Assembly: GCA_030704615.1 (NCBI GenBank)
Contig: CM060734.1
Span: 61,380,001 to 61,444,000, forward strand
Length of the DNA stretch: 64,000 bases
Source of the DNA: Takakia lepidozioides
Lineage: Eukaryota > Plantae > Bryophyta
Reading direction: 5' to 3'
A model generated the notes under the pieces. The model worked only from the letters and a program-made list of their open reading frames with translations, made no database searches and was not told the origin of the DNA. The translations under genes and the position numbers were made by a program. Positions 1 to 28,200 of the stretch are shown here, one piece after another (the first letter of the stretch is position 1; each line of letters begins with the position of its first letter).

Positions 1-1449
1 GTCTGACTGGACTGCATGAAGTTGTACAAAATGTCATCGACATGGGGCTCATAGGGGGGGTTGACGAAACAACCCTGGTCAGAAATCTCAAAGCTGCGGA
101 TGGAGGATGGTGTCTTTGAGGTGCGAATCCTCCGCAGGCAGATCGCCTCGAACATCCTCGTCTGCCAAAGATAGCAGGTTAGTGTGGTAAACACAATCTA
201 TAGTGGAAGTGTGTACATCGGCTATTCAGAACTCAGACACAAAAAAATCATGAATCGGTGATGATCGGTGTCGATCATAACACATTCTACTAGAGTGGAG
301 CTGCAGAGAAAATTGAAACTCATGATCAAAGCACAAGCAGAAGGGAGACGGCATACCAGCTGACCAGGGAAACCCCCTTTCACAAGGTAGAGGCTGTTCA
401 CACAATTCCATGTGCGCAAAACTTCAAACCCTGAAGACTTGAGGTATGATGCCAATGCCCGACGACTATCATTGTCACATGACTGAAAAAGCAGAAGTGT
501 CCCTGCATCAGAGAGGAAGTTGTTACAGAACCCGAACACCCAACTCCAGTAGTTGTCCTCGAATTTGTTCCAGCCTGGCGTCTTGCCCTTTGGAAGAACT
601 TCTGGCACAGCCTGGCCATCCGGGATGTCGAGAATGACAATGTCGGCCGCATAAGTTTTCTGCACACCGCACACGAAGGTGGGACCTGTGCTCACCTACA
701 ACAGACATGTTTTTTATAAGAACGATGGCAAGATTGTTTTCAAAGAACGAGACTGAAATACTGCCAACGAAACTTTCAGAGAAAAAGGAAAGAAACTGGA
801 ATTCTCACCAGATTGAGGAATGAGATTATATTGTCCCAGGTAGGGGATGGCACCCCAGTGTATCCTCTCTTTCGACTCTGCATCATCGAAAGCCAACCCT
901 CATTAACAATTTTCATCTCTCCTGCTGAATCAGAACGGGAAGGGTGTGGCTTGGCATCAAACACGCACTGAAGAGTGCGGGTATATCTTCCAGCAGTAAA
1001 GTCCTGCCCACTCTCCATCTTCTTTTCATTCTCCTTCCCCTTGTCCTTTTCCTTCTCTTTGGACTTGTCTTTGTCCTTTGGCTTTGCTGGTGAGATGGCT
1101 ATGACATCAACAGCCTTGTCTTTTGGTTTGCGGCCCGCCTTCTTTCCCTTCTGCGGCGTTCCCTGAGCATCAGGCTCCTTGGCAGCCAATGTTGCTATGT
1201 TTCGTTGATACTCTTCGTCAGTCAAAGGCGCCAGCATCTCAGCGTTATTGTTCAAGTATTTCATATGCTGTCGTGTGCTCAGGTGGGCAGTCAAGGTACC
1301 ACCCACAGTCTCTGAAGTGAGAAGGACTCCAGTCCTTCAATATCCCTGCAGTATACATGGTTGGATCATTTGCAGGGTCCGACCACATGTCAAGATAGTC
1401 GGAAATTCCGCTCAGGTGATTTCTTTCCATAAGCACATATTTCGTGTAC
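1..1449 (-). pseudogene. 3' part of ParB-MTase-like gene of element A (exons ~1449-800, 695-357, 161-<1); frameshift near 1260
   Basis: Exons align with element B exons 6-8 (YTKYVLMERN, GWYLDCPP, ADIVILDIPDG, WNCVNSLYL, TRMFEAICL). The frame changes between ORFs 1245-1715 and 776-1306. Confidence 0.85.
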
Positions 1450-1589
1450 CTGAAAAAAGGAGATAAATCCCAACCCACAAAAGCGCTCAGTGAGTAAGAT
1501 GCAAGTAGAACAGAATGAAAAAAACATAGATTGAAATGGCTCTGAGAACTGCTCCAAGGACCTTTCAGGACCACACTACTGCTCCAGAT

Positions 1590-2313
1590 ATGAATGTCGT
1601 CAACGCCATTCAAAACATTCCATTCAATGATACTGTAAATACACCCTAATCCAGGTGAATGCAAATTATCGTTTAGGAATGACACAGACATAGAAGTGAA
1701 TGTCGTCAACGACATTCACTAATGAAGCCTAATTATTACTTAAATGAAGCAAAATCACAGGATGGAAATCAAAAAATCGAGTAAGGAGCCCTCCAGGAAA
1801 ACTCAATGCACATTCATAACGAACATATCACTGAGGACCTCACAACATCACTGTATGTGAATGGCGTCAACGCCATTCACAAAAATACCAAAAAGAAACC
1901 AATTACTTAGCTCCCAATCCATGTAAATTCAATTTGTCGCTGTTGAATAATACAGACACAGCAGTGAATGTCGTCAACGACATTCACTTTGGATTTCTCA
2001 TAACAGAGCTTATCAAGCCTCCAGATTCCTCGCAAGAGGCAAAAACAATGCAGAACAACTGAATGTCTGCATTGACATTCAGCAAAATGAAGTGAGGAAC
2101 CCTCACTGTAACCTCTATGGACATTACAAATATTTACATAACTCTGAGGACCTCTCAACAACTCCGTATGTGAATGTCGTCAACGCCATTCAAGGACATT
2201 ATCAATTCTAATCAGGGACACTATAATTGCACCCTTAGATCCTAACCAGGTGAATTCATATACACGCTTAAGAATGACTCAGACAAAGAAGTGAATGTCG
2301 TCAACGACATTCA
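1590..2313. repeat. Six dispersed 24-bp palindromes GTGAATGTCGT-CA-ACGACATTCAC
   Basis: Copies start at ~1590, 1696, 1857, 1964, 2170 and 2291; arms are reverse complements around a CA spacer. Confidence 0.9.
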
Positions 2314-2318
2314 ATTCA

Positions 2319-3882
2319 GAGGCTACATAGACAATATTTTGGAATTGAAACGAGTGAGCAAGTACGATTACATCCAGGACAATGTATTCCCAGGTCAAGG
2401 TGCCATCAAAGTTTTTCTTTTCAAAATGTCGACTGTTGGGGAGGGCAGTGGGGTTAGCCTCGTGAAGCGGATGCAGAAGACTGGGGACTTGCAGAACTGT
2501 TTTCTTATGTTTGATCATGTGAAACGAGTGAAGGATTGGACGACAATGGCTTGTCATGTCTACGATCCAGTGTACCAACGAGTTATGACAATTGCAGTTT
2601 GTGACATGCAATCCGAGGATACGGAATCCCAGAAGCTCATGTGAAATTCCCTGATACGTGTCATGGGCTGCCATGGGCTGCCATCTCCAAATTTCGCAGG
2701 TTTCATGGCGGATAGTGCTCAAGCAAATTTCAATGCTGTTCGTATTGTCTTCGGATCGAGCGACCCAAAAGTGCCTATGCCAGGAAGAGAGCGTACATGT
2801 CTATTCCATTGGACACAATCTCTGGAAAAACATACAAAGTCGGACATCAAACCAGAGATGCAGACTCAGCACCGTAAATTGTGCAAAGAGTACAAAGATG
2901 CTAGAACAATGAAGGAGGTGGACACTTTGTTCCAGACAATTCGTGCATGGTGGTTCTCTTCTGGAGCTGCATCACTTGAGAGTATGAGAGCATTGGAAGA
3001 TTGGCTGGCGTTTTGACACTTCCGGTATAGACAGTGGGGAGCAGCCATGACAATGGTACGAGGCTTCTATTTCATGCTTTATTCATATATTTGCTTTCCA
3101 TATTTTTGACTCATTGCTTTCTTTATGTTGTTTCCTGTGCACTGTTCTGAAGTGTGGTTATCCTCTTTGCAGAACATGTCCATTGAGGAAATGGCGGACA
3201 TGCCATCTTGCAATTTGGCAGAAACTGTGCACAACGCATGGTTGCAACAGTATGGGAAACGAGGTCGGGATTTGTATGTGGCAACAACAGATGATTTGAT
3301 ACGTGCCTTGCAACAACAAACCCGATACCGTGATTTCTTACGAGGTGGGGTTGGTGGCAAGGGTCCGGACAAATGGGAGTTGATGTTGCGTGCTCCAAAC
3401 AGATCTGGGGATCCAATCAAGATAGCACGGGCGGTGAGCATGTATGCCCAGGGAACGCCACTTGTTTCTAGAGTTCCACATCTTGAAGGGGAGGAGAGAT
3501 TCGGCTCCTGTAAGAGGAAATTGAACACTCCACCTGGTTCGGATTCAGATTCCCACAGGGCAGACCGTGATAACTTCTCGAAGCCTCGTGTTCCCCTGCA
3601 TGACAGCTCCATGTCCGGAACCTCCATTGTGGAGGAACCTCCAACACAACGGCAAGCTCCAGCATCAAACAGTGCCACTGAAATGGTGCAGGAGAGAAAC
3701 AACCCCCTTGATGTGCTTGAGTCCGCATGCCCCGACCACGTTTGGCACATAGAACGCACAAGTGTAGGGTCTCGTGTGAAATGTACAGCGATCAGGGCAA
3801 CTAATTTCGAGAAGTGCACTTCATCTATATCCAGAGGTGGTGCCCGAACTCCTGCTCCGACTTTCACGGGCTTGATGCGTCC
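2319..3882 (+). pseudogene. MULE DDE transposase of element A, middle part (5' deleted, nonsense codons)
   Basis: LMFDHVKRV, FMADSAQA, CLFHW and CNLAETVHN motifs; TGA in place of Trp at 2642 and 3014; intron ~3056-3172; interrupted at 3882 by element B. Confidence 0.9.
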
Positions 3883-3979
3883 GGGGGGTGCTATTCCGTG
3901 AGCCTGGAGGCGTGAGCCTGTGAGCCCAGGAAAGCGTGAGCCCAGCACAGGCTCACGCCACGTCAGCATGCAAACAGTG

Positions 3980-4033
3980 CCTATTTCCGCGGATGTCACC
4001 TATTTCCGAGTGGGGTCACCTATTTCCGCGGGT
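3980..4033 (+). repeat. Three ~20-bp subterminal direct repeats (CCTATTTCCG...GTCA)
   Basis: Seen directly just inside B's left end. Confidence 0.75.
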
Positions 4034-4285
4034 TGATGTGGGGAGAATTGAGAATTGAGAACAAAGTGGTTTGTTTGTTTTTGCAATGTACTCAAGTCTG
4101 TGAGGTCCACAAAACAACAAATATATTGAAGGAACAATCCGGGCAGTCCATGCAACCCCCATCTCCAACAATAGTTTGGAACCATGAATGTGAATTCCAT
4201 GCACACATTGCAAAGAGGACAATAAGGACACACAACCATCCCATTTCAAATTTGTCCCAGAATTAAACCAAAAGAATACTTCATA

Positions 4286-7200
4286 TCAAGTGTCGCAGTC
4301 ATCACAATCAATGTCCACCTCCTGTGCTATGTCATCTACAAAGATTCTGGCCCCAACACCACGTGTTCTACGAAGGCCATCGCAAGGTGGACTCTGAGTG
4401 CCATGAACGGACATGCTTGCTGCGAGTGCCTCCGCATAGACAGGTAGCACACAAGACCGAGGAGGACTGAAAACAAGTCCAAATAGGTGTGATAGCCCAG
4501 GAGGGCAAGTGGAAGCACGCGGACTCCTACACATGTCCACAAAATTCCATTTTTAACACAATGATGCAATGCACAAGTCCAACGAAGAGGATGTCTCCCA
4601 TTTGCACTTTGCCTCAAGAACAGCGATTCTCGATAATGAAACAACAATGCAAGCATGCACAGGTTCAACTTACTCACAGGCAAAGTCGGAGTCCAGCTCC
4701 TTGTCAGAAGTCTCCTCTGTACCAGTATCAGCGGGACGGGGCTTCGGAAGGACCTGAGAAGTGTGTCCACCCAAACCCATCAGGAGGTTCTTGTAAATCT
4801 CAGCATCCCCTTCAATCCCAAAGACATGTCGCGCACTGGCCTTGCAAGCGTGGTACGAAGCACCTGCAGTGGAATAGAATGAAGTAAGCAGACATTGAAG
4901 ACACATTCGGAACGGTGGAAAGTGCTGAAAGTGCAAGCTCAATCAAACCTCATGAAATGTGAATGTTGAAGGGACGAACCTGTGCCCATCGACAAATCCA
5001 GAACTCTGGCGTCTGTGTAGGTGCAGCACTCCACAATCGTTTGAATGAAAGCCGGGCTCCTCTCCCTCGCCCCTCTCCAAGGAACCCCATTCCCCCTTCG
5101 CAAGCACACGTTGCTGTCGACGTAGTTGTGATGCATGTCATCCGTGGGAGGATCTGTCCTGTCATCTATGAACTTGCCCCCGTGAGTGATGGCAAACTCC
5201 GTAATGCCGGCCGGAGTCGTTGGTGGATGCACCCGGACGAGACAAACAGCTTCAAACAGACGAGTCTGCGAACATGACATCCAGAAGGAACTAAGAACCA
5301 AAATAAAATCGGGCCCCTACATATGAGTTTGAGCGACCTACACAACACAATCCCAGAACAAAAAAGAAGAGGAAGAAGAAGGGAAACTCACCATCTCTCC
5401 CGGACGATCCCCCTTCGTAAGGTACATGCTGTTCACACAATTCCATGTCTTCAGGACTCTCATGCCCGAGGCTTTCAAATAGCTGGCAAGGGCACGGCGA
5501 CACCGAACATCGATGGACTGGATGAGAACCAAAACACCTGCATCGGAAAGGAAGAAGTTGCAAAAGGAAAAAACCCACCGCCAGTAGCGCTCATCAAATG
5601 CATTCCAACCCGGACAAGCACCCGATGGTGGGATATCCGGGACTGCCAACCCATCAGGGATGTCCAAGATGATGAGTTCCGCTGCATATGGCTTCTCCTT
5701 CCCGTTCACCCACGATTTGGTCATTTTAGCCTGCAAACAAAAATACAATGGAATTCTGACAAGTTTATAAACGATCCATGCCCACAGCAGACAAAGAGAG
5801 CAGAAGCCACAGAACCCAAAGAGAACACGCACCGTGCTGAGGAACTCGACAATCCTCTCCCACACTGGTGATGGCTCGCCCTTGTAATCAGATTTCTTCG
5901 ACTCCATCATGGCAAGGAACCCGACGTTGGCAATCTCCAACCTGGTTGGACGAATGACCCTCGTGGGATGTTCCACTGCATGGTACGGGTCCTTGGGATC
6001 AACCACACCCTTGTTTTTTCTCCCGGATCCCCTACCATGCGGTGGAGTCTGCTGGACATGCTCCACAGGGCCAATAGCTGCAACACTTCCCTGCCCTTGT
6101 GCCACCTTCCCTCTACCCCTTCCCGTCCCCACAACACCAGCAACATCTTTTCCCTTTGCCTTTCTTCCTCTACCCGGGGTATCCTGAGCGGGAGGCTCCT
6201 TCTCTGCAAGAGTCCTCAGATTACGCTCATGAATGTCGAGGTCCGCTGCTGCGGCAGTGGCTGCAATACGGTCATTCTCTCTCCTCAAAGACAACTCTAC
6301 AGCTGGGGTCTCTGAAGGAGGGCAATCCAAATACCAACCACAAGAAGAAAGATGGTCCGGACCCCAGTCATGCAAGATCCCAGCAGTGAACATGGTCTGG
6401 TTGCCAGCAGGGACAAGCCAAAGGTCCACGAAATCTGGATGTTTGTCCAAGCAATTCTCTTCCAGGAGAACAAACTTAATGTACCTGCACGAACAGACAC
6501 AGCCTCATTATCCAATGCACATATTGTGTCCCAGCTTTTTCAACACACCAGGAAGACCCCCTTAAACAGTATGCCACACAACACATTGCAACCACAACAC
6601 AAGCAAAGAGTGCAAGGGTGTGCACCTGTAAAGGCATCGTTTCCAGGCTTCCTCTCCTTTTTCCTGCTGGTCAAGCTCATTTGTTCGACTGATGCCACCC
6701 TCCTTGCTGAACTCTCTAAAGAAACCAGAGTGCCACACTGTGGCTCTCCATTTCCTCATGTATGCTTCGAAGGAGACCTTCGGAGCTGTCATAGTGATGC
6801 CATAGTCAGCCAGCTGAGTATGCAGAACCGATCGGGCCCTTTCTTCCAACTGCAAAAAAATTGAAATGGAAGAATGAACCCAAAAACAGTCACAGCGAAT
6901 GTAAGAGGCAATGGGAAGAGAAGGACAGGAAAAGAGAAAAGAAAGTGAGATACGAGAGGACATCACACCTGGCTCCAGTAAGTGGCCTTGTGAAGCCAGT
7001 TGTCCAGCACATTGTCACTGACAGGAACGACACGCTGGGTCTTCTTCTCCTTCTCTGGCCTTGGGAACATGTGGGTATCCCTAACTGTGGGATCGGAGTT
7101 CCATATCTGCAGCCACTTCACCTTCTGTTCAGAAGACACGACGGCGGTAGACAACCTGTGCAACTTCTCCTGGGCCATCTCCGGCTTGCCTGGCTTGTTA

Positions 7201-10200
7201 TAATGGTTTTTTATCTCCAGCAGAAACTGCGGCCCGAATGATGGGTCGGCCATTCTCAACTGCTTCACAAAAGCACTCATTATTGTCCTTCTTGTAGCGT
7301 TCATCTCCTTCTGGATGTGACTTTCAACTCCCTTTGCTGTCCTTCTCTCCTCAGGGGTAGAGCTGTAGTATTCCAGTTTGCCACGCTCCCCTGCATCTGC
7401 AATGTCTTGCTGCAAGGGAATGCAAGAGAGTTGCATCAATCCAAGGTCAAGGGAGACAGAGAGAAACAAACATGTGGAAGCAGGAATATGGAAAGGCCAG
7501 ATGAAGGAAGATGTATCTCACCGTGTACATGTACTCCATGAAAGCCTCACGGGTCAACGAGTACCATGTTTCCGAAGTCTTGGAGCTTTCGCATTTCTTA
7601 TACATCTCTGCCGAAAGGATGGTCTTGAAGTTGGTCAAGGGCATCTGCCCGATCCTTTGTATCCTATACAGTGTGTGAACCAGACTCGTTTTGACATGCG
7701 ATGTCTCCGTCCCTCTGCAGAATGATATCTGAATTTCAGAATGTAATTCAAGGACTTCAATCAAGGAAGAACGGAACCAGAAGTGCAACGTGTACAATGA
7801 GAAACCAACCTGTTCACATCATTCATTGCCGTCAGAAGACCCATCATGTTGTCGTCACAATCAAGCACCATCGATCGAACAGAGTAATGCCACTCTTCCT
7901 CCTGTGAGTGCAGCCTCCCAATGACAGCCATCCATGCAAGCAACCGGTGGTTGCCATCCCAAACGTGAAACATCTTCCCCGAGAATACCTGGGTGGAAGG
8001 TTTTCTGGAGAGAAGAAGTTCGAAGGATTCGTTCACCTGTCTCCAAATGGGGTCCCAGGAGTCGACGATTGACTCATCAACAAGGAGCTCGTTACCTCTT
8101 GAATCCCTAGTAGAAACGTAAAAGACCGCGGATCCATCCAAATACCCATGAACAAACTCGGCCTCCAGCTTGAGAATGTCTTTGACAAGGGGTGGACGAA
8201 CGACGGGCATGGAAACCAACCTACACAGGGGAATCTTCAACCTCCCACCAGGAGCAAGCATACTTTGAACCACAAGCTGAGAGTTCACCTTTTGACCCCC
8301 CAGCATCTCAGCGGCTTTGCTTTCATAAAACTCATCGTCAACATCATCTTTGGTCTCCTTCCCCTGACCCTGAGGGACCTCATCCGCCACACTTTGCATT
8401 TTCCCCTGCAAGGTTGTTCACTCAAATTCTTATAAGAGAGGAATGAAACGTCGACCGATGCATGAAAAAGTGGGATAAAAAGGGAAGTGTTCTTTGAGCT
8501 GCCAGATAAGTGTTCATTGATCCTCACGGACATGCACTATGTTCCCGATTTACACAGGGAAAGAACATTGAAAAGTTCTGCTCAAATATCTGCCCATGAG
8601 GGCCGAAAGTTGCGCCCTTCCATATTCATATGTTCTGCCTACACAGTGTGCGGTTCCGCAGACTGTTTGAGCTGACAGTGAAGGGTTCATTTTATACTCA
8701 AAAATGTGCCCATGAAGTCCAAATTTTGCACCCAGAAACATTGAAATGCTCAGCTCAAACAGTGTGCGTTGCCGCACACTGTCTGGGCTGGCAGTGAAGG
8801 GTTCTTTACACACTCACACAGGTGCCCCTGAAGTCCAATTTTTGCATCCAGAAACATTGAAATGCTCAGCTCAAACAGTGTGCGTTGCCGCACACTGTCT
8901 GAGCTGGCAGTGAAGGGTTCATTTCACACTCACACAGGTGCCCCTGAAGTCCAAATTTTCACCCAGAAACATTGAAATGCTCAGCTCAAACAGTGTGCGT
9001 TGCCGCACACTGTCTGAGCTGGCAGTGAAGGGTTCTTTTCACACTCACACAGGTGCCCCTGAAGTCCAAATATTTCACCCAGAAACATTGAAATGCTCAG
9101 CTCAAACAGTGTGCGTTGCCGCACACTGTCTGAGCTGGCAGTGAAGGGTTCTTTTCACACTCACACGGGTGCCCATGAAGTCCAAATTTTGCACCCAGAA
9201 ACATTGAAATGCTCAGCTCAAACAGTGTGCGTTGCCGCACACTGTCTGGGCTGGCAGTGAAGGGTTCTTTCACACTCACACAGGTGCCCCTGAAGTCCAA
9301 ATATTTCACCCAGAAACATTGAAATGCTCAGCTCAAACAGTGTGCGTTGCCGCACACTGTCTGAGCTGGCAGTGAAGGGTTCATTTCACACTCACACAGG
9401 TGCCCCTGAAGTCCAATTTTGCATCCAGAAACATTGAAATGCTCAGCTCAAACAGTGTGCGTTGCCGCACACTGTCTGAGCTGGCAGTGAAGGGTTCTTT
9501 TCACACTCACACGGTGCCCATGAAGTCCAAATTTTGCACCCAGAAACATTGAAATGCTCAGCTCAAACAGTGTGCGTTGCCGCACACTGTCTGGGCTGGC
9601 AGTGAAGGGTTCTTTTCACACTCACACAGGTGCCCCTGAAGTCCAATTTTTGCATCCAGAAACATTGAAATGCTCAGCTCAAACAGTGTGCGTTGCCGCA
9701 CACTGTCTGAGCTGGCAGTGAAGGGTTCTTTTCACACTCACACAGGTGCCCCTGAAGTCCAAATATTTCACCCAGAAACATTGAAATGCTCAGCTCAAAC
9801 AGTGTGCGTTGCCGCACACTGTCTGAGCTGGCAGTGAAGGGTTCTTTTCACACTCACACAGGTGCCCCTGAAGTCCAAATATTTCACCCAGAAACATTGA
9901 AATGCTCAGCTCAAACAGTGTGCGTTGCCGCACACTGTCTGAGCTGGCAGTGAAGGGTTCTTTTCACACTCACACGGGTGCCCATGAAGTCCAAATTTTG
10001 CACCCAGAAACATTGAAATGCTCAGCTCAAACAGTGTGCGTTGCCGCACACTGTCTGGGCTGGCAGTGAAGGGTTCTTTTCACACTCACACAGGTGCCCC
10101 TGAAGTCCAATTTTTGCATCCAGAAACATTGAAATGCTCAGCTCAAACAGTGTGCGTTGCCGCACACTGTCTGAGCTGGCAGTGAAGGGTTCTTTTCACA

Positions 10201-12361
10201 CTCACACAGGTGCCCCTGAAGTCCAAATATTTCACCCAGAAACATTGAAATGCTCAGCTCAAACAGTGTGCGTTGCCGCACACTGTCTGAGCTGGCAGTG
10301 AAGGGTTCATTTCACTCTCACACAGGTGCCCCTGAAGTCCAAATATTTCACCCAGAAACATTGAAATGCTCAGCTCAAACAGTGTGCGTTGCCGCACACT
10401 GTCTGAGCTGGCAGTGAAGGGTTCTTTTCACACTCACACAGGTGCCCCTGAAGTCCAATTTTTGCATCCAGAAACATTGAAATGCTCAGCTCAAACAGTG
10501 TGCGTTGCCGCACACTGTCTGAGCTGGCAGTGAAGGGTTCTTTTCACACTCACACAGGTGCCCCTGAAGTCCAAATATTTCACCCAGAAACATTGAAATG
10601 CTCAGCTCAAACAGTGTGCGTTGCCGCACACTGTCTGAGCTGGCAGTGAAGGGTTCATTTCACACTCACACAGGTGCCCCTGAAGTCCAATTTTTGCATC
10701 CAGAAACATTGAAATGCTCAGCTCAAACAGTGTGCGTTGCCGCACACTGTCTGAGCTGGCAGTGAAGGGTTCATTTCACACTCACACAGGTGCCCTGAAG
10801 TCCAATTTTTGCATCCAGAAACATTGAAATGCTCAGCTCAAACAGTGTGCGTTGCCGCACACTGTCTGAGCTGGCAGTGAAGGGTTCTTTTCACACTCAC
10901 ACAGGTGCCCCTGAAGTCCAAATATTTCACCCAGAAACATTGAAATGCTCAGCTCAAACAGTGTGCGTTGCCGCACACTGTATGAGCTGGCAGTGAAGGG
11001 TTCTTTTCACACTCACACAGGTGCCCCTGAAGTCCAATTTTGCATCCAGAAACATTGAAATGCTCAGCTCAAACAGTGTGCGTTGCCGCACACTGTCTGA
11101 GCTGGCAGTGAAGGGTTCTTTTCACACTCACACAGGTGCCCATGAAGTCCAAATTTTGCACCCAGAAACATTGAAATGCTCAGCTCAAACAGTGTGCGTT
11201 GCCGCACACTGTCTGGGCTGGCAGTGAAGGGTTCTTTTCACACTCACACAGGTGCCCCTGAAGTCCAAATATTTCACCCAGAAACATTGAAATGCTCAGC
11301 TCAAACAGTGTGCGTTGCCGCACACTGTCTGAGCTGGCAGTGAAGGGTTCATTTCACACTCACACAGGTGCCCCTGAAGTCCAATTTTTGCATCCAGAAA
11401 CATTGAAATGCTCAGCTCAAACAGTGTGCGTTGCCGCACACTGTCTGAGCTGGCAGTGAAGGGTTCATTTCACACTAACATAACAGACATCAAGACCAAA
11501 TTTTGAACCCTAAAACATTGAAAAGGTCTGCTCAAACATTGTGCGTTGCCGCACGCTGTTTGAGCTGGTTTTGAAGGGTTCATTTCAACCTCAGATAACA
11601 GACAGCAAAGACCAAATTTTGCACCCAGAAACACCGAAATGCCCAGCTCAAACAGTGTGCGTTGCCGCACACTGTCTGAGCTGGCAGTGAAGGGTTCATT
11701 TCACACTCACACAGGTGCCCCTGAAGTCCAAATTTTGCACCCATAAACATTGAAATGCTCAGCTCAAACAGTGTGCGTTGCCGCACACTGTCTGGGCTGG
11801 CAGTGAAGGGTTCATTTCACACTCACACAGGTGCCCCTGAAGTCCAAATTTTGCACCCATAAACATTGAAATGCTCAGCTCAAACAGTGTGCGTTGCCGC
11901 ACACTGTCTGGGCTGGCAGTGAAGGGTTCGTTTCACCCTCACATAACAGACATCAAGACCAAATTTTGCAAGACCAATGGTTCTTTCTTTCACAAATACC
12001 TGCCATTCAAAGCCGAATTCTTCACAAATATGGGTCGTGTGGATTTTACCTTTTTCGTAGCTACTCGAGAAGACTCCCCAGTTGCCGGGGACGCTTTCCG
12101 CTTGGGGCTGCTCTCTTCGCCGACTATGTAGGTGAGCCTCTCCCCCTTCCTCTTTCCCGTGGTCAGATCGTTCGTGAGGCCAGTGTCAACATCTTCCTCC
12201 ATGTCGTCTGTCTCTCCCTCAGACGCAGTGTCCTCCTCGCCTGTTCCTGGAACTATGGTGGGTTGTTGTTCTTCTCCAGATTCCTGCTCCTCCATCGCCA
12301 CACTTTCCTGTATTCCCTCTTCTTCCTCCTTTTCCTCTTCCTCCACTCTTTCCATCCTCAT
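4286..12361 (-). CDS. ParB/Srx-like domain + beta-class N6A/N4C DNA methyltransferase-like protein (10 exons, ~1157 aa)
   Basis: Exons 12361-12050, 8405-7810, 7714-7522, 7409-6969, 6849-6626, 6484-5833, 5730-5392, 5265-4980, 4863-4674, 4526-4286. All have GT-AG boundaries with compatible phases and total 3474 nt. Motifs: FHVWDGNHRLLAW (ParB/Srx), LIILDIPDG (motif IV position) and RSPAFIQTIVECCTYTDARVLDLSMGTGASYHACKASARHVFGIEGD (motifs X/I/II). Exon 1 and exon 10 assignments are less certain than the core. Confidence 0.8.
8560..11970. repeat. Tandem array, ~29 copies of a 116-bp unit each containing a 40-bp hairpin
   Basis: GAAGTCC recurs at 8714, 8830, 8946, 9061 and onward with period 114-116. 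Hairpin CAGCTCAAACAGTGTGCG-TTGC-CGCACACTGTCTGAGCTG has 18-bp arms with 1 mismatch. Edge units are degenerate. Confidence 0.97.
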
Positions 12362-13303
12362 TCTATATCTAGCTCTATTCCTGTTTCTAGAACTCGTGAA
12401 GTATAATGACTTCCTTCTCTTTCTCCTCCGCTGGAAACAAGGGCTCCCCACGATGCCCCTGGAGCTCTCCAGTTTGACGTTTGCAACAAGTTCTGGTATC
12501 GCATGTAACAAAAATAAAAATGGACGTTGTCAACCGTATTTGGATGCGGGTGTTCATATTGTGTGCGAACGGAATTCATCCATTTTGTCGTCTTTGTATT
12601 ACCCAGCTAATAAAGCGCCGAAGAAAAAGAATATCCGTTGCATGCATTTGCGATATATGTCAGATGTGCTTCGCCGCCTGCCAATACATGGCGGCCTCCT
12701 TGCCTTCTTTCAAATTCGAATGCGCCGTAGAAATGTAGTGCTTTTTCAATTCCGAGCAGTTCTTCCAGATTCGCAATAATTGTTATGCTTCACATATGCA
12801 TCCACGTGTGTTGTGCTGCATGCCCTGTGGTTTTTTTTATGCCGTGACCGTCCCCATGGGGTCATTCGGTATAAAGGATTGTGTCGGATATGACCATGTG
12901 TTGCACACATTCGTGCGAGGTATCTCTTGAAGTGTCGGTGTTTGTTCTGTGCTATTCTGGCGCAACACAATCTCATTACAATCGGATCTTCCTGTTTACT
13001 GCTCTCCAGGGTTGTTGCCGTCATTTCATAATGGATGGTTTCATGTCAATTTCAGGGTTTGTTTTCCATCCAAAAACAGTACGGCTTCTTGTGGCTCTGG
13101 TCTTTCAAAACCGTTTTTCTGGTTGGTGGGAGGTGAATGTGCACGTCATCCCTACATCCTTGGCATGCATCGCCGGCAGCCTTGGGTTTGGTGCTACCCT
13201 TGTTGACCTCAGTTTGCTGGTGGTATTTCCACTTTCGATAATTACGGGCTCTCAGTTCGGGGATTCCGTTCTGCATCGGCAGTTTCGTTCAGTGCTGGAA
13301 AAC

Positions 13304-16300
13304 ATGTCGAGGGAGCGAGATGCACTCGCTCGATTCCATTCCAATGCAGGTACTCTTCCACTGACTGCCACTGCAGACGACGATGGGTATGCAGTTGTTC
13401 ATGAGGATGAGCTGGTTACAGTGTTCCCGCTGGAGTTGGGTTCTCTGCTTGTTCAGAAAGAGGTGTATGACGAGGATGGGAATTTGGATTCTGGGCACTT
13501 GGAGAAACCCATGGTTGGCGAGTGTGGAAGGAAGTGGAGAGTCCTTCCAGGAACATACCGTGTCCTTGGAAAAGAGAGAAGACAATCAGCAGGATCAGTC
13601 GTTACCCCTGGCACTGCAGCATCGGTCGTGCAACAGAAGGGCACAGTTCCTGTGAAACAAGAGGTGAGCACATCCACTACCTTCGTTACTCTTTCGGACT
13701 CGTCCTCGGAGGATGTTTCTGAGATTCCTCCGCCAGTGCAAACTCCCTTATTGGATGATGACGAATTGCGCGAGATAACAAGTGTCATTCCAAAATTGAA
13801 AGCCCTCGCAGGTGTGCCTGGGTGCAAGAGCGAGCTACGTTTTGTTGATTGGGAGTCCCTTCCAGTGCAACGTGTTCAATACGTGCCAGCTCAGTTTGAT
13901 GGGGACATCTTGTTTGAGCTCAACCCTCCCACGTCTTCCAGTGGACTGGCTGGGCTTCTGCAGGGCATGGACAAGAGACATGACGGACATCCTTGGTGCA
14001 GGACAAAAACTTCGAACATCCATAACGACATTGGCTTGAAATTTCGGAGGTCGGTTTGCGTTGGGCATTGCAAGTGCCTGAATATTTCTTGCCCTCGGCT
14101 GAGAAACAGCGCTCAGCCAAACGAAAGTGAGTGGGAAGGTGTGCCCCTGAATCCTTTCACCCCAGGGCTTGCACCTCCCAATACCAATACTTTTGTGTGC
14201 AGGTTCTGCAAACTTTCCCCGTCCTGTGTTTCTGTTTGCCACGCTCGTATGTATCAGGTGGCACATCGATGCAAGACAATGACTCGTGCCTGCATTCATA
14301 TGGGTGCACACGAGCATCCTGTGTCCAAAGGGAGTTGCAGGGATAGCGTGGACATCGCTAGAAATCTACTGAAGCAAGAGTTCCATAATGCCCCTTCTGC
14401 AACACCTTCTGCTATAGCGCTTGCAGCTAGCAAGGCATTCCTGGAAAAACACATACTGGGTGAAGGGGATTCGACACAGCCAATGCTGGATGCAGATTCC
14501 CTTGAGGCAGTCATGGACCATTTCTCCGTGTTGAGCTCTCCCAATATTCGAAACCAGGTGAATGCACTCAGAATGGGCACAGGCACTGCTGGATTCATGG
14601 ACAACATTATGGACCTCAAACGGAGGAGTCGCTATGAATTCATTCAAAACAGTATGTTCCCTGGCCAGGGCTCGTCCAAAGTGTATTTGTTCAAGATGTC
14701 CGCTGTGGGCCAAGGCAGTGGTGTGAGCATTGTCCGCCGAATGCAACCTGGAGGAGATTTGGCTAAATGTTGGTTAATGTTTGATCACTGCAAACGGGTG
14801 AAGGGTTGGACAACCATGGCGTGCCATGTGTATGATCCAGCGTACCAGCGTGTGCTCTCCATAGCAATTTGTGATATGCAGTCGGAGGACACTGAATCCC
14901 AGATGCTCATGTGGAAGTCCCTCCTGACCGTCATGCAGCGCAATGGAATACAGAACACAAACTTTGCGGGCTTCATGGCTGATAGTGCACAGGCAAATTT
15001 CAATGCAGTGCGGCGCGTGTTTGGTTCTGGGGATCCTAAGGTCCCCATGGAAAATAGGGAGCGCACATGCCTCTTCCATTGGAGTCAATCTCTGGCACGT
15101 CATACAAAGCGCTGCATTCGCCCTGACCTTCAGTTGGAGCATAGAAGGCTCTGTCTGAAGTACAAGAATGCCACCTCAATGGGAGAAGCAGAGAGCACTT
15201 ACCAGGCAATCCGGGCTTGGTGGTTCTCCGCTGGTGCTGCTACAGGTATCCACCTGAAGGAGTTGGAGGACTGGTTGGTTTTCTGGCACTTCAGGTACAG
15301 ATAGTGGGGAGCTTTCATGACGACGGTAAGCCTCACAAGTTTTCCTTAAACACAAATTGCACTTTGCATCGTGCCTGTTCATTTGGGGTTGTTCGATTGT
15401 CACTTGAATAACCTCTACCATTTCTTTTCCTTCCTCACATTTCCATGCAATGCCTCCTGCAGGACATGTCCTTGGAGGACTTGGCCGACATGCCATCGTG
15501 TAATTTGGCAGAGACTGTTCACAACGCCTGGATGCAACAGTCTACCAAAGCAGGTCGTGACTTGTATGTGGCCACTGCTGATGACATGGTGCGGGCATTT
15601 ACACAACAAACCAGGTACCGCAATTTTCTGATGGGACGGGGTGGAGGGAAGGGCCCCGATTCGACTTTGTTGATGCTAAGGGCTGCGAGTAGGTCCGGAG
15701 ACCCGTCAAAGATGGCCAGAGCTCTAAACAGGTGCACTGAAGGTTCCCCTCTGCAATCCAGGCTCCCCCATTTGGAAGGCGAGGAAAGATTTGGATCATG
15801 CAAAAGGAAATTAAACACTCTTCCAGGGTCAGATGGAGATTCCCATAGGCCAGACAGGGTCAATTTCTCTGTGCCAAAGGTGTCTCCAGTGCAGACTAAG
15901 TCCTGTGCCGGCCCCTTCCCAGGTGGGTCCTCCTCCTGTGGAGCAGGTGCGGAACATGCAAGCATAGCAGCGGAAATCCCATTGGAGGAGGTGGTGGCCA
16001 TGGTGCAGGAATCTGATTGCATTGATAGTGACTGGCATATAGAACGCACCCCACCAGGATCTAGAGTGGCTTGCATGGCAATTCGGACCCCCTCTTTCAA
16101 GAAATGCAAATCAAAAATATGCAAAGGCTCCAGGGGGACTCCAGCTCCAACATTCACAGGGTTGTTCCGACCTTATCATAGTGGGGAGTCAAAAGAGCAC
16201 AAGTTTTGGTTCTGCCCAGACGATATGGCACGATGCGTGAAGGGAACAGTTCGTCCTTCCGTGATAATGAAGCCCCCTCCCCCCGCAATTTGGCCTGTGC

Positions 16301-16875
16301 AAATTGGGACATCGCTGTCCTCAACCGAGATAAGCATGCTGGAGGAGGGAGGGTTTTGTCTTGCACGGTCCCGGGTGGTGCCCTTATGCACTGTCGGCAC
16401 AGATGTGCCACATGCTCCGACAATGCCTCCACCCGGTGCCAACTCCCACCCAACAAAAAGAGATGGAAAAACAGTGCGCCGTGTTGCTTCGGGTGCAGAT
16501 CACGAATGCAAGATGGAATCGGCTAGAATTTTGCAGGCTACGGTGGCTCGTATCACCGAAGTCCCTTCCCCGGGGTATGGACGGATTTACACAGTGCTGT
16601 CAATTGGCTCAGTTCTTCATGCCAAAGAATATCAAGTTACCATTGGGAATTTCCCATCGTGCACTTGTCCGGATTTTGTAACGATGCGTGAGGGCGCTCT
16701 CGGCATGAGAGGGAAGTGGGTCCCCTGCAAGCATCAATATTACATATACCTTGTAATTATGTGTTGCGACGGTAAGAGAGACCAATTCATTCACCAAGCC
16801 ACACTAGGCTACGGAGAAGTCATCACCCTTCTGCAGCGGGACACCTCGCGTAGAGCTCCGCCAACTTCTCTTTGA
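13304..16875 (+). pseudogene. MULE transposase of element B: GCM-like Zn DNA-binding domain, DDE core, C-terminal SWIM finger; one premature stop
   Basis: GCM-like HDGHPW..FRRSVCVGHCKC..C..CRFC..C..GAHEHP; D (LMFDH), D (FMADS), CxxH (CLFH), E (NLAET); SWIM CTCPDF..CKH. Intron 15326-15462. TAG at 15302-15304 where element A has CAG. Confidence 0.9.
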
Positions 16876-17303
16876 ACACATACGAGCCATGCCCGCTTCC
16901 CATGCTGGTTTCCAGGTTGCCGTGTGAAGACTTTTCATTTTATGACAAACATATACATTTCGTTCACTTGTGAGGGCAAATGCACTTGCGATTCATTGTA
17001 AGCGTCTCTCTGTGAATTGAAATAAACTGTGTCAATCATTCTGAGCTCAAATCTGACATGTTTACATATTCCTCTTTTTTGGCACGCATTGCAGACATGG
17101 TGCATGGTGGCCTCCTTTGTTTTGTCCACGGTAATAGGCCCTCTTCCTGCAATCCTCGCCTATAGGACCTGCTTCTCCAGCAGATTCATGCCGCTCACGC
17201 TTCCCTGAAGCGTGAGCTCAGCTCACGCTTCAAAGCTTGAACGTGAGCTCAGCTCCCAGGCTCACGGGGCTGGGCTCACGCCGTAGCTACGCTGGATGCG
17301 TCC

Positions 17304-17978
17304 ATACGGTCAACCAGAAGCCAAGAACCACAAGTTCTGGTTCTGCGCAGATGATTGTGCCAGATGTGTGCATGGAACTGTGCGTCCTTCCGTAGTGATG
17401 AAGCCACTCCTCCAACCGTTTGGCCCGTGAAGGTGGGAACACATCTCAGCTTTCAGGAGATTGAAATGCTGGAGGAGGCAGGTTTTTCCCTTGCGAGACA
17501 ACCCCAACTCCATGCATGTGCTACTACTTCTGCGTCCTCCCGGGTCCCCCCGGCAAATCCTGACTTGTGGCCAACCAAACGAGATGGAAAGCTCGTTCGG
17601 CATTTCCCTCCAACCGCTAAACACTTTGGCAAAGTGGAGTCCGCAAGAATGCTCCAAGCTCGTGTTGGAAGCACCACGGAAGTACCCGATCCAAGATATG
17701 GTCAGGTATTCACAATCATCACTTCCACATCTGCTGTTCATGACAGGACCTACGACATCACGGTTTCCAATTTCCCCAATTGCACATGTCCTGATTTTGT
17801 GAATATGCTATCAACCAGTTTGGGCAAGAGAGGTAAATTCATACCCTGCAAACATTTGTATTTCATATTTTTGAGGAGGATGGTTTGCGATCCCAAACGT
17901 GACAACTTCATTCACCAGGCCACTATGAGTTTCAACGAGGTCGATACTCTTTTGCAGCGGGATACAACACATGGGTAG
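17304..17978 (+). pseudogene. 3' end of element A transposase with SWIM finger
   Basis: HKFWFCADD...CTCPDF...CKHLY, colinear with B's C-terminus, resuming right after the TSD. Confidence 0.9.
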
Positions 17979-18558
17979 CATGAACTATGTAATGTGGTAT
18001 GTGGATGACCATGATTTGAAATGTGTAATTCACATCAATTCGTCGGCTGTGCAATGATATGGCCTCCAACTATACGGAGTGAGCTCTGAGTGACAACTTT
18101 TAGGTAGTGCACATTTGTCATTGCACCGTTCGAAGTCTACATGTCTTGCTGTCGCTATGCACTACAATCATCTTTTGAAGATGATCCTAACTCTCATTGT
18201 TATTTGAGGAGGGAGGAAGGTCTTCCCGTGGCAGCCTTTATGGCGCACACTTTGTGAGGATATTTTGTCATCCTCGTAATTGTAAAAGTGAAACAAGCAT
18301 TTGTAATTGCACAATGTTGGATGCTGCAATTGTAGGCCTCAATGCTCGTCTTGATTCTATTTAGGCAAGATTCCCTGCATTAATTCCACGGTCATAGGAC
18401 CATCCACGGTTATAGGCGGCGCATGTTAATGGTGACGTGGCAGATGACGGACAGTGCCATGTCATCATTTACCGCCACATCAGCATGCTGACATGACGCT
18501 CACGCCACGTCAGCGTGTGTACAGGCTCACGCGCAACTCTCACGCCATTGCGTCGTTG

Positions 18559-21500
18559 CATGGATGTCATGGCCCTGCATCGTGTGATCATGTGTGGTGG
18601 AACCCATACTTTGTCAAGTAGTTAAAAGCTTTTCATGTGTTGTCTCTTGATCAACTTTTAGCTCGCAAACCAGATTTCTATCTTGAGAGCATTAAGTTAC
18701 TACGAATTGAATGAGATGTGGGCAATGGATAGTCAATGTGCAAGTGCTTCTATGCATGATTTGGTTTCTGATCACTCTACCCCTATAGGGAATCTTTAGG
18801 ATCTGTCAACAGTAACCATGCTACAGAATCATTGAATTGACATGTGGAGATTGGGAGTTTTGGGGGGCCCACGGAGAGCCAGGGACCAAGTGAGTAAGTG
18901 GTGTCATCTAATGATGAGGAAGGGGAGCGACTATTGTTGGACAATCAGCTACGACTCTTGCGTGAACAGGCTCGATTCTGGAAACTTCACAATCGAAACT
19001 CTCCAACATGGGCGTTTTACAACATCAATGACAACATGCCAGTGGATGTAGCTAAGCCTCAGGTGATGCGATGCATTATTTGTCATACTGCCACAGTTGG
19101 TCCCGCCATATTAGCATTACGCACCAGATGTCAAAAAGGTCTCATCACGTACTTCAAGGCCAACGACATCACAACGATGAGAAAACACGTTGAGGTAGAG
19201 CACTTGTTGGTGTCTTCAAAATATGAAGATGAAATAAATAGTAGAGAGATGAACCCTTTGGATCAACAGCCTGCTAAAAAACGTCCTGGTGTCAGTCCAA
19301 CTGCAATTTCAGAATATTTTGGGGCTGTCAACCCATTCAAGAAAGATGACCCAGTCCAAAAGGCCCTTTTGGAGGATCTGGTTTTGATGGTCATTAAACA
19401 GTATATGCCTCTTAGGACAGTCGAGTCGATCTGGCTACAAAGAATGGCCCTCCGTCTATGTCCCAGGGTAGTCTTCCCAAGTAGGAAAGTTTTCATTGAT
19501 GAGGTGCTGCCTTCACTAGTTGAGAGAACCTTACAAACTTTTGTTGTTCCTACTTTGGCCTCTTGTGTCTCGGCTACAGCGAGCTTTGATTTGTGGATGT
19601 CCAAAGGAGCCTATGATGTTTTTGCCCTCGTCATTAACTTCTTGTCATCTGATTGGGAACCAAAACATGTAACCATAGGCCTGTTTGAAGCCACAAAAAC
19701 AAGTGGTCAGGCCATGACCATGAAACTTCAACAACTTCTTGCTAAGTTCTCTTTGACAAAAAAGATACTGTGCTATGTAAAAGACCAGGGTTCAAATTTG
19801 GCAAGCATGACACAAGCACTCAAGTCAGTTGTGAGTTTTGACAATTTACAGTTGAAGGAACCTTTCTCTGGATCATGCTTTGGACATGCTATGTCAAAAG
19901 CATGCCAATACGCCACCACGGATGAGAAAGTATGTACAGGGTTATCTTATGTCTCCATCAAGGCTGCCCAAAGTGACATACAAAAATGCATTACATGGCC
20001 TAAGAAGTCAGGTAAGGGCCGTCAGGAATGACAGAAGGCATGCATAGATTCTGGCATGCGGCCCCGCAAGCTTAATACTCCCGTCAAAACAAGGTAAGTT
20101 TGTTATTTTATGTTTGTTTGTACTATGATCATAATTAATGCATCTGTAATCTGATGTAGGCCTAGTAATAATTATGTCTTTACTGTGTATACTACTTTTG
20201 ATGCTTTGTGACAGTCTGGTCATCACTATTAATTACTGTAATCTGGTTAGAATTATGTTTTGTAATCTGGTTGTTTATTGTTTATAACCTAATCAATTTT
20301 CCTGCAATATTGTGGTCACCATTAATTGTTCATGATATTTGCTATGTGGTCACTCGTTGAATTTTGATGTAGTATTTATGGGGAGGGTGCAGGTTTGCAA
20401 GTAGGGTGCTGATGTTTGAGGATGCTCTACATTTCCGAACTGCCATCAATTTATGCTACAACCATTAAACACTGGTCTTGCAAGCTCGAGTTCCCACCAG
20501 TAAAACTTGGGCTATTGCTGGGGCTATGTGAAAACACTATTTCCTGTTGTCACTAGTTGTGTGCTCAACCAAAGTCGAGGCCATTGGTTGCTCACCGACG
20601 CTTTGAATGTGGCAATAACCATGTCGTTGCAATTCCAGCGAGAGATTGCAGCGATTACGATTGAAAACAGGTTTGTCGAAGCCTCACAAACCAATGGCTT
20701 TGACCGGGAGTTGACTGATTTGAGTGTTGCAATGATGAAAGAAGTGATTGGTGTTTTGTCACCTTTCTTGGCTTTCATGCATAAGTACGACAAGTTAAAA
20801 GCCCATAATATGCTTGCTTTGATGCTTGATCCTCGCTTCAAGGGCATGGCTTTGGTTTCGGAGTATGTAGGCCGAGAGGTGGCCCTCCGAATCGTGGAAG
20901 AATCTGACACGAAATCTTTACATCCTTTACTTCTCGCATGTTTCCAAGCTTTGGTACCATCTAGCCCCTTGGAAAGTGATTGTGGTCGAGTGCATGGCAA
21001 CATTCATGATTTATTCACGACCTCCGAAACAACGGCTGAAACCACTAAAGACATTGTCATCCGAGAATTGGCTTTGTTCCGACGTTTTGCAGTTGATGTA
21101 GAGAATTGCAGTAACCCTCTGACCTGGTGGAGGTCTCATGAACTAAAGTTTCCAACTATTGGTCATCTGGCTGGGCAGATATTGGGAATTGTTGGAAGCC
21201 AAATTGAGACAGAATGAATATTTTCTATTGCTGGAATCCTCACTGCTTTACGTCGTTGTCGTTTGCAAACAAACAATCTTGACAAGATGATCTTTGTTGC
21301 AAAAAATTGGCCTAATGATCCGAGAGAGGGTTGCAAGAGTTTCAAAGTGTTGGCTGATATGAAGGAGCTTGAGGATGAATTGGAAGAGCAGCTTGACGAG
21401 GAATTTGATGATGAAGTTGAACGTGAGGAATTTCCCGAGGGCGATGAGACTTTCTAGTGTTGTGCTAATGGTAAGATTCATTTCACTTTTTTTAGTGTAC

Positions 21501-25242: not shown

Positions 25243-28200
25243 TTATGACACAAATGGGTCTCGTGAGTGGTACTGCCCAGACCACTGCTGCTGCTGCTGC
25301 TGCTGCTGCTTGTTTTGCTGTTGTTGTTGCTGCTGTTGCTGTTGCTGTTGCTGACGTTGGAGCATCATCAGATGTTGCTGCTGCCAGTGGTGAACATGGG
25401 CTTGCGCTTGGGCCTGGGCTTCATAGAGCTGCCTTTGATGCTGCTGCAGATCATACTTTTGTTGAACTTCACTAGATGATGGCTGTGGCTGTGGCGGGGG
25501 GGTACTTGTGGTAGTTCGGAGATGAGTAGCACCCATGCCCGGGAAAGGAAAGGCTGTGGTCTCAGAGGTTGAGCTTGGAGGGTTGCCACTGGACCACATC
25601 CCATAGGAGCTGTAGAGTGAAGAACTTCCCTGCCCAGGATACCCTGTCTGCATCACTGCAGGCTTTGCACTTTTGTAATCATCCAACCAGCCATAGTCAT
25701 CCACTTGGTGCTGTTCATCTCCCTCATTGTTATCATTCCGGCTCAACTGATTTGACGCAGATTGGCGAGAAATGCCTTGAGGAGTTCCAAACGCGGCATT
25801 TAGCACAGGCTTGGCAGGAAGAGGGCCAAAACCAGGGGGTGGGCGCATGGCCAGAGGCCCTACCCTTTTCACCATCGGGTTCTCTTTAGCACTCCATGTG
25901 CTGCTGACAGAAGGTGTCACAACTCCATTACTAGTACTTAAATACCTAGTCGGCACTGCGATCGTTGGAGACTCAGTTTCATTTGACAGTGGGAGGGCAG
26001 TTGAAATCGGTTTATTCTCTGCAACCAGGCTAGCATTACAAATAGGAGCCCCCAGGCGTAGACTGGACAGGCCATTTGTGGCCAATGCCTCCAACTGGGA
26101 ACTCCATAAAGATGTGCTGGCAGGAGTCTGCTTGGGTTGTCCAATCACTCCAGCCGCTGTTGACACTTTGTCTGGGTTGTTGGCAAACACACTCCTGATA
26201 CCCGGTGCCCACTCCGCAATACTTGGAGGACAGTAGGCAGGTGCAACCACCATCTGATTCAACCAGTCCCCTGCAGAGCTTGCACTGGTGGATGTCGTAG
26301 GGAGCCCAAAAGACCCCATGGGGCCACCTTCCTTCATAGGAATACTAAATCCAGATGATACCAACAATGATAGAGAAGCTGCCACACTAGGCAATGAAGG
26401 TGGTGCAGTGGCTATGCTTCCATTGAGAGAGCTAGAAAGCCATGGTGCAGGGATCGCAAGCTCAACATCATCAGACCTTGTGGATGTCATCAGAGGAGTA
26501 CTAACTAGATAGCTCGAACCCTCAGATGCCATATGAAAGCCCTGGTTACCCTGGCTAGGGCCCTGATTGCCAGAAGTCAAAGACAGCGAATCTCTGTCCC
26601 TAGAAACTTCAGGGACCCAGGGACTTTCAAGACCATTTTTCACCACCAAGTTTGGCTGAGCAGATAATTCAGTAGTCACAGCAGCAGAAGCACTCTCAGA
26701 TGTCCCCGCCCTATCTAGTGCAAGTGATTCTGTACCTGGTGGGGATGTAGGTTGTCTGCCCTTGCTCAAGGGCTTGAATACAATAACTTCCTCATCCTCT
26801 TCTTCCCCTGGGCCAATTTTAAATGAGGGGCCTCTCATGATTGACACTTGCTTCTCTTGGGGGGTCTCCAAACTCCAGCCTCCACCAGTACTAGTGTTTG
26901 GTAGTATATCGGCAATATCCTCAGAGTTGTGAACTCCTTCCTCTCCCAAGTCATTAGGTTCATCCATGTCCAAGCCCATATCTTTCTTCTGGCGCACCTC
27001 TCCAGCCATTACAAACTTCTCTAGTTCATCATCGTAGCATATTCCCCGTCCTGTACTTTCCAGGGCATTGGCAACTGCCTTTCCAGCTGCCAGCAGCCTC
27101 TGAACACGAACATGACGTTCCTTCTTGTCCCCCATACCAACCCGGGGAGGACGTTTCGAATAGTCCAACGCAGTCTGAGCTGGAACAAGAGGAACAAAGC
27201 CTCGGAGTTCATAGTCCTCCCAAAGAGCAACTCCCCCCTCACTTCTATCCTCGCTGAACCCGTCGAGGGAGCCAAGAGTTAGTCCTCCCTCTAGTGCTCC
27301 ATTCATATCACCCAGTACCTTGGAGCTTTCGGCAAAGCTATTTAAAACAGTCAGGCACTGTCTCCAAAAGAAAACTCTGGCGCTTTCCTGTTTTACATCA
27401 ACCTCGCTCCCTACAGCCATTTCAGGCCGGCAAGCTAGCCACTCCATGAAAACAAGTATGGCTGGGAGAAGAGGGCTTTTCGAAGCATCTCTAGCTTCGC
27501 CACAGCGACGCATTAGGCGTCCAGCACACTCAAATGCAGCTGTAGAAGCATGCTGTAAGAGGGCTGAGCGCTGTAAAATTTCTGCATAAGTTGGGTGATG
27601 CATTTCTGGTCCCCAATTAACATTGTGGACAGTGAAGATGAGAATTGCCACTAACTGAAGCACGCCAGATGCACCTGCACTGCCCATCCCTATACCACTG
27701 CGATGGTCTGCCCCTAGGCCCGCCTCCAGGCTGGCATCCTCCCCTGACAATATTTGCTCCAGCTCACGCACTGTCGCTGCATACACTTCCGAAAACATCT
27801 CGAGGCTAGCAAGTAATCAAATGACAACAAGGGTTAGGGGCCTCTTGCCGGTCATTAACAACACAAAGCAATACCCTTGGGACCAATGACAGGAAAGAGG
27901 AGATTAGCTCTTTCAAAAATTACTGACCTGGTTCTTGTGAAAAGTATCCCATTTAGTCGCACAAAGCAAACACGAAAACTCTTCCTAAGTTCAGCATTGG
28001 ATGCCGAGTCCACCTTTGGGTCCGCACCCTCTGCCTTGCAATCTTTCACTGCAAGCTCTTTCACTGCAAGCTTAAGTGCTCCATCTCCAGCAGAAAGAAT
28101 CCGGTTTCCTTTTCCCATTTTCCCATTCTCATAAACCTTTGGTGCTTCTAACTTGAGACCAGAGCCCACTCGTTCATTCGAAGCTGGATGCAGCTGCGTG

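Follow-up and report, generated by a model that had tools for sequence, protein, structure and literature searches.

Organisation of the locus

Analysis of the window, the 64-kb stretch of Takakia lepidozioides DNA studied here, revealed two nested transposable elements, each with a transposase on the plus strand and a methylase-like gene on the minus strand (Table 1). Element B is inserted in the transposase of an older, broken element A; that transposase also carries stops, and excision of B in silico restores its reading frame at the joint. Gene B is whole in its predicted splice model and lies head-to-head with the element B transposase, with palindromes between the two; gene A survives as a remnant.

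Table 1. Features of the locus, with positions in the window
Feature	Position	Strand	Description	Basis
Gene A remnant	1..1451	-	lacks its 5' exons; frameshift near 1260; continues beyond the window	
DIPD of copy A	618..629	-	codons 629-618, within predicted exon 695-357	six-frame scan
Element A array	1592..2312	.	20-bp palindrome unlike that of element B, in 7 copies; CG-N4-CG core in 6	
Element A transposase	2291..3882	+	broken; interrupted by element B, resumes 17304-17978	
Left target-site duplication	3874..3882	+	9 bp, GATGCGTCC	
Element B	3883..17294	.	13,412 bp; short degenerate terminal repeats with GCTCACG/CGTGAGC motifs	
Gene B	4286..8399	-	9 predicted exons, all introns GT-AG, 1051 aa, no internal stop	splice prediction
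Gene B, last exon	4286..4526	-	predicted last exon and stop	
Gene B, exon 8	4674..4863	-	predicted; motif II acidic residue (GIEGD)	
Gene B, exon 7	4980..5265	-	predicted; rewritten motif X (WRGARERS) and motif I (DLSMGTG from 4998)	
Gene B, exon 6	5392..5730	-	predicted; motif IV, near-invariant PxWN loop, LSDAG strand, WxxxN loop	
DIPD of gene B	5653..5664	-	codons 5664-5653; motif IV position (DPPY in active beta-class enzymes)	six-frame scan; aligned to DPPY
Gene B, exon 1	7810..8399	-	predicted; ParB/DUF3723-like domain, DGNHR at 7958	six-frame scan, language-model similarity
Element B array	8643..11943	.	28.5 tandem units of 116 bp, 29 palindromes, CG-N4-CG core, all 58 CpG intact	
Element B transposase	12881..16875	+	predicted intron 15326-15462, SWIM finger at 16660, one premature stop 15302-15304	
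Right target-site duplication	17295..17303	+	9 bp, GATGCGTCC	

Residues 289-1050 of gene B align with the Ceratodon protein KAG0624017.1 (25%, E 1e-55), and the named relatives of the gene are Ceratodon purpureus proteins only. The gene model places DIPD at residue 723, motif X at 880, motif I at 903 and motif II at 924, which is the permuted order of the beta-class methylases (motif IV before X, I and II); the final Gly codon of DLSMGTG is split by a predicted intron. The 361-bp exon region containing DIPD matched 700 and 725 contigs in two DNA sequencing runs of one sample, which may be the source of the window, indicating that the family is multi-copy. Two other runs, presumed to be RNA, gave short matches, mostly below 90% and lacking splice joints, which have no bearing on expression either way.

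A D-D-CxxH-E pattern, which we take to be that of the MULE consensus, was read by eye in the transposase. The SWIM finger profile scored E 0.0025 and 0.086 on the transposases, both short of the cut-off, and the Pfam MULE domain had no match on them; a Pfam search at E<=1 over 13 stretches returned SWIM plus one stray match and nothing else, and a PDB sequence search with the transposase had no match. The 9-bp target-site duplication of element B fits the range of 8-11 bp given for Mutator-like elements (PMC6446971).

Clusters of GCTCACG/CGTGAGC at 3897-3957, 17193-17280 and 18498-18531 correspond to the ends of A and B and are candidate transposase sites; these end clusters are common to both elements, though the internal palindromes differ. 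An apparent duplication of a SWIM-type tail (16198-16364 and 17329-17494) represents the 3' end of A's transposase, displaced by the insertion of B. Just past the likely right end of A lies a broken hAT-type transposase (18898-21217; hAT dimerisation domain, E 7e-4), and of the 52 related loci of a second plant host, 5 had hAT matches no more than 10 kb away. Additionally, the window holds an SMG7-like host gene on the minus strand (25243-29715), with EST1 and EST1_DNA_bind domains and a poly-Gln tail, and rearranged fragments of a LINE-like element (46428-48074 and 52936-54260) with a weak zf-RVT match and direct and inverted duplicates. The GT-AG introns and the EST1-domain gene rule out a bacterial source for the window, which is plant DNA with spliceosomal introns.

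Conservation of the DIPD motif

The initial annotation of this DNA had described DIPD as common to both diverged methylase copies, and the six-frame scan bore this out, with the motif lying within ELIILDIPDG in copy B and DIVILDIPDG in copy A. The two exons show gap-free homology, with 68 of 113 residues identical and synonymous sites saturated (pS 0.82, pN 0.29), so that the shared DIPD is not a matter of chance. Moreover, 22 of the 33 variants listed among copies were synonymous, against 22% expected (binomial p 6e-8, indicative only, as the variants are related and thresholded), and none of the 33 fell in the DIPD codons. The DIPD exon is under purifying selection, and the motif is therefore not a product of decay; since copy A is itself broken, its DIPD is a record of past selection.

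A HMMER search over 1.84 billion representatives gave 81 matches, from which one repeat protein and one spurious match were removed; 77 of the remaining 79 cover the motif, and the median pairwise identity within the family is 32% (78 rows). The first residue was D in 61 and E in 10 of the 77 relatives, the second was mostly hydrophobic and never P, and the third was P in 65. At the fourth position E (46) and D (24) accounted for 70 of the 77, followed by S (3), K (2) and N (2). The canonical DPPY or SPPY was accordingly absent from this family alignment, PP and an aromatic fourth residue each being found in 0 of the 77 homologues. The acid at position 4 was equally common among weak (38 of 39) and strong matches (32 of 38), which argues against query bias. 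These data modify the proposed change from Tyr to Asp: the aromatic residue is indeed lost, but residues 2 and 4 both depart from DPPY, and the family favours Glu over Asp at the latter. The proposal that the change predates the A/B split and has been maintained agrees with the results, the replacement being far older than the split.

In a second plant host, searched with a narrower alignment, 80 loci representing 52 distinct sites were found, most of them decayed copies. The commonest motif there was EVPS, and an aromatic fourth residue occurred in 0 of the 38 distinct sequences with a residue at that position; this lineage carries Ser as the fourth residue and frequently Glu or Lys as the first, in copies that are decayed. 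Since EVPS predominates in this host, an acid at position 4 is not obligatory: across the data the aromatic residue never occurs, and the acid is frequent without being universal. A ParB-like exon lay upstream of the motif exon in 24 of the 52 sites, transposase pieces were present in 7 and the head-to-head layout in 4, many of the contigs being short.

A word-based search of longer proteins with the DIPD exon and a single-exon scan of metagenome contigs yielded no match, and the same was true of viral contigs and PDB sequences searched with a Ceratodon relative, P0071. A phage tblastn with P0100 returned 171 records, mostly annotated methylases (best listed E 8e-3), and one with the ParB-like exon returned four chance-level matches only; no close prokaryotic donor was found by these two phage searches.

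Predicted fold and the remainder of the pocket

An AlphaFold model was obtained for the domain of P0071 (281 aa, 68 rows, pLDDT 74.9, with residues 1-18 unreliable). Its best comparison was with beta-class DNA methylases, which filled the top 11 structure rows; CcrM gave Z 13.9 and rmsd 4.2 over 210 aligned residues (Foldseek E 8.7e-11), and M.BceJIV, M.MboIIA, N4CMT and M.PvuII were also matched. In the ESM Atlas, 10 of 10 structure rows were PF01555, and the Pfam profile of PF01555 scored 15.7 bits against a cut-off of 26.7. A beta-class fold is predicted for the helper protein encoded by gene B, as modelled on this Ceratodon relative. C5 methylases, with Z 5.9 or less against the model, were ruled out, and m1A58 enzymes reached Z 4.4 only. 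Strand 59-65 of the model ends at the Asp of motif IV, which puts DIPD directly after the catalytic strand and not away from the active site, and in profile alignments DIPD fell on the DPPY of two phage methylases and, weakly (E 0.23), on that of M1.HpyAVI. By its position in the model, DIPD occupies catalytic motif IV.

For comparison, cofactor contacts in N4CMT are the motif III Asp, Trp142, His253, Phe280, Ser283/Thr285 and Asp301, its Tyr110 was modelled as stacking the base, and CcrM recognises DNA through loops in the WxKxNP part, according to one structural account (PMC10406627). In H. pylori HP0593, the Y107G change in DPPY is described as inactivating (PMC3036652).

Motifs X and I were compared in 20 distinct family sequences covering the region, several of them near-copies. 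HPTQKP of motif X has become WRGxxE[K/R/L], with the His absent in 20 of 20; in motif I the Pro-Phe is likewise absent in 20 of 20, Thr-Gly is present in 18, and the first Gly is kept in four, including copy B of the window, which retains G-T-G. The SAM contacts named for N4CMT in motif X (His) and motif I (Phe) are thus replaced in all 20. The description of motif I as DLSMGTG in place of DPFxGSG holds for copy B, and in copy A motif I falls beyond the left end of the window. The acid of motif II is kept in the 5 of 5 sequences that cover it, a Trp-Asn pair aligning with the WD of CcrM and HpyAVI is 99% conserved, and the W and N of the WxxxN loop, which aligns with the WxKxNP loop of the same enzymes, are 89-91% conserved.

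None of the tested beta-class motifs, (D/N/S)PP(Y/F/W), DPFxGxG and HPxQKP, is present in the helper, and by these sequence motifs it does not belong among the active beta-class methylases. The joint loss of catalytic and cofactor contacts, with the scaffold and the likely DNA loop kept, favours a pseudoenzyme. A rewired enzyme would also be expected to keep the first Asp/Glu (71 of 77), the third Pro, the cage Trp, the motif I Thr (18 of 20) and the motif II acid, and to conserve WRGxxE.

The ParB-like N-terminus and the palindrome arrays

DGNHR in exon 1 agrees with the GxxR motif, for which a role in ParB/Srx-fold domains has been described (bioRxiv 10.1101/2025.10.10.680097), and is partly kept in relatives. 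In language-model similarity the exon reached 0.95 with DUF3723 clusters, and a further cluster, 11% of which carries ParB_N, scored 0.92; the region had no profile match in Pfam, PHROG, NCBIfam or PDB, and the domain model had a pLDDT of 40.5. The ParB-like assignment is based on DGNHR together with this language-model similarity. Members of the DUF3723 family occur on fungal Starship elements (bioRxiv 10.1101/2021.12.13.472469), and ParB-N6N4 fusions are described as common in phages (bioRxiv 10.1101/2025.10.10.680097). The exon 1 region (7812-8402, minus strand) also resembled unnamed eukaryotic clusters, the commonest from Cnidaria, at 0.95, which hints at DUF3723/ParB-like domains in animals.

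The palindromes of the element B array are spaced at 115-116 bp, the unit of 116 bp corresponding to about 11 helical turns, and 27 of the 29 are identical. Differences per site amount to 1.1% in the palindromes against 3.9% in the rest of the unit. One copy of the element A palindrome carries a compensatory change in both arms. Neither the A-type nor the B-type palindrome occurs elsewhere within the 64-kb window; the B array is internal, and the element termini carry their own motifs. Among the four head-to-head loci of the second plant host, three had tandem repeats between the genes and one had none, and a clear palindrome series was seen in one. In locus L031 (6950-7202) of that host a palindrome of different sequence recurs every 116 bp, matching the period of the array in the window, and L037 (6286-6907) and L048 (5730-5946) contain related 46/93-bp tandem repeats, with inverted sub-units, upstream of the ParB-like exon.

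Comparison with known systems

A close layout is that of the accessory gene of Sola1-1_Ec32 in Ectocarpus, likewise a DNA transposon gene on the strand opposite the transposase, whose product of about 1100 aa combines a ParB-like and an N4/N6 methylase domain, much like the 1051 aa of gene B; that helper is a predicted 4mC or 6mA writer proposed to bind and modify its own element (PMC12477816). Gene B shows this transposon-borne layout of a ParB-like and a predicted methylase domain. The Ectocarpus carrier is described as a Sola-1 element with a 4-bp target-site duplication and a 282-bp terminal inverted repeat, whereas element B has a 9-bp duplication and short degenerate ends, which rule out a Sola carrier. 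Element B further differs in its SWIM-type transposase, its land plant host and a catalytic motif replaced family-wide, the Ectocarpus domain being described as predicted to methylate (PMC12477816). ParB-methylase transposon helpers are already in print from Ectocarpus; the lineage without the catalytic motif would be a new form of them. No account of such a land-plant lineage was found in the literature searched, mainly non-subscription papers, with terms other than the literal motif.

Red algal Plavaka PAG2/PAG3 likewise pair a ParB-like accessory protein with inverted-repeat tandem arrays and have an N6 methylase in the cassette, but in the available account separate genes on an EnSpm-type carrier encode a fusion of ParB with a 2OG oxygenase and one of the methylase with a SET domain (bioRxiv 10.1101/2025.02.11.637652). 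CcrM, M.BceJIV, M1.HpyAVI, M.MboIIA and rotifer N4CMT (PF01555) share with the helper the predicted fold, the order IV-X-I-II, the WD/WN loop and the WxxxN loop; they differ in having the DPPY/SPPY, HPTQKP and DPFxGxG that the helper family has replaced, at 8-16% identity.

VANC of the Arabidopsis VANDAL elements is also an accessory protein of a Mutator-like element, the type to which element B probably belongs, and is directed to family-specific motifs in noncoding tandem arrays, and its targets differ between VANDAL families as the palindromes differ between elements A and B (PMC5735166). Unlike the helper, VANC is described with DUF1985/DUF287 domains and 8-9-bp non-palindromic motifs (PMC5735166); these domains had no Pfam match on eight gene B stretches or nine relatives. 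METTL14 and the methyltransferase of the DIRS1 retrotransposon likewise keep an N6A-methylase fold with a disrupted active-site motif, and DIRS1 is transposon-borne, but in the source they belong to other clades with other partners and are given neither a ParB fusion nor a palindrome array (PMC4738411). Marchantia MpDN4MT1a/b are, like the helper, beta-class bacterial-type methylases in a bryophyte; they are presented as host genes with an intact TSPPY and demonstrated 4mC activity, and not as transposon-borne (bioRxiv 10.1101/2021.02.12.428880). Membership of gene B in DN4MT1 was ruled out by the absence of TSPPY.

Function of the helper

On balance, we consider it somewhat probable, by analogy with VANC, that the helper is a non-catalytic DNA-binding factor which recognises the palindromes of its own element and resists host silencing. 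The ParB-like and helical N-terminal part would dock on the element's own palindromes, and the methylase fold would grip the DNA, with contact probably retained through the WxxxN loop. Methyl transfer has probably been lost, given that the aromatic residue which would stack the base has been replaced along with several SAM contacts. The complex of helper and palindromes may then shield the shared promoter region from host 5mC silencing, an anti-silencing role modelled on that of VANC for VANDAL (PMC5735166). The earlier view that the protein is an inactive binder or has another chemistry, and is not decaying, is supported. The parallel rewriting of motifs X and I and the EVPS lineage without the acid favour the former of these. 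The recovery of transposase matches in so few loci of the second host, and of a palindrome series in a single head-to-head locus, count against self-recognition, and the transposase could instead be the binder of the array.

It is possible, though we think it rather unlikely, that the helper is still an enzyme with a rebuilt pocket, in which the acidic fourth residue takes a different acceptor (a ring nitrogen, a base that is already modified, or a protein amine, for example on a lysine of a histone or of the transposase); it might use a SAM analogue, and the palindromes would direct it to the element. An acid at that position in 70 of 77 relatives at a median identity of 32% speaks for such a change, as do the retention of Asp at position 1 and Pro at position 3 of motif IV, of the cage Trp, of Thr in motif I and of the acid in motif II, and the replacement of motif X by a new conserved string. 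tRNA m1A58 methyltransferases offer a precedent, having a D-x-P-x motif without the aromatic residue, but they compare poorly with the P0071 model (Z 4.4). Moreover, position 2 and motif I are widely variable, and the lineage of decayed copies with Ser at position 4 often has Glu or Lys at position 1. A more specific form, which we hold to be doubtful, is a new enzyme type: a ParB-guided, beta-class-derived transferase with a [DE]xP[DE] plus WRGxxE pocket, marking DNA or chromatin at its own CG-N4-CG palindromes. If this were true, mosses would possess a modified base or a histone mark of which no land plant example has yet been described.

There is only a slim chance that the helper is a non-catalytic transposition factor like maize MURB, binding the transposase or holding element DNA at integration, with the palindromes serving as transposase or promoter sites. 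The head-to-head layout of two genes is that of MuDR-type elements (PMC6446971), and binding between MURA and MURB has been reported (PMC12973397). The B array, however, is internal, the termini having their own motifs, and ParB-like helpers adjoin inverted-repeat arrays in red algal transposons too (bioRxiv 10.1101/2025.02.11.637652).

We give slightly less credence to the idea that the helper is an ordinary methylase of N6-adenine or N4-cytosine, with the flipped base stacked by some other aromatic residue that the loop or a partner subunit supplies. Such an enzyme would be in keeping with the predicted beta-class fold and motif order, with several conserved aromatic columns after motif IV and with the writing of 4mC or 6mA predicted for the Ectocarpus helper (PMC12477816), but motifs X and I also depart from the canonical form. 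Nor can the near-invariant Trp stand in for the missing Tyr: its counterpart in the alignment is the WD Trp of canonical enzymes, and these have the Tyr too.

Neutral decay of a dead methylase is very improbable: copy A is broken, the element B transposase has a premature stop and the relatives in the second host are mostly decayed, but the same motif type persists across a family of 32% identity and past saturated synonymous sites, with an excess of synonymous variants and an open frame of 1051 codons in gene B.

To return to the non-catalytic, palindrome-recognising factor, VANDALs are, according to one account, the only elements for which binding and modification of their own DNA has been described (bioRxiv 10.1101/2025.02.11.637652). 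If a bacterial ParB-methylase has been turned into a conserved pseudoenzyme, with palindromes particular to each element, this would be a second solution unrelated to theirs and would illustrate how self-recognition evolves in transposons. Mosses allow this to be tested directly, and annotated members of the family exist in Ceratodon. If the pocket proves to be active, it would point to a new modification chemistry.
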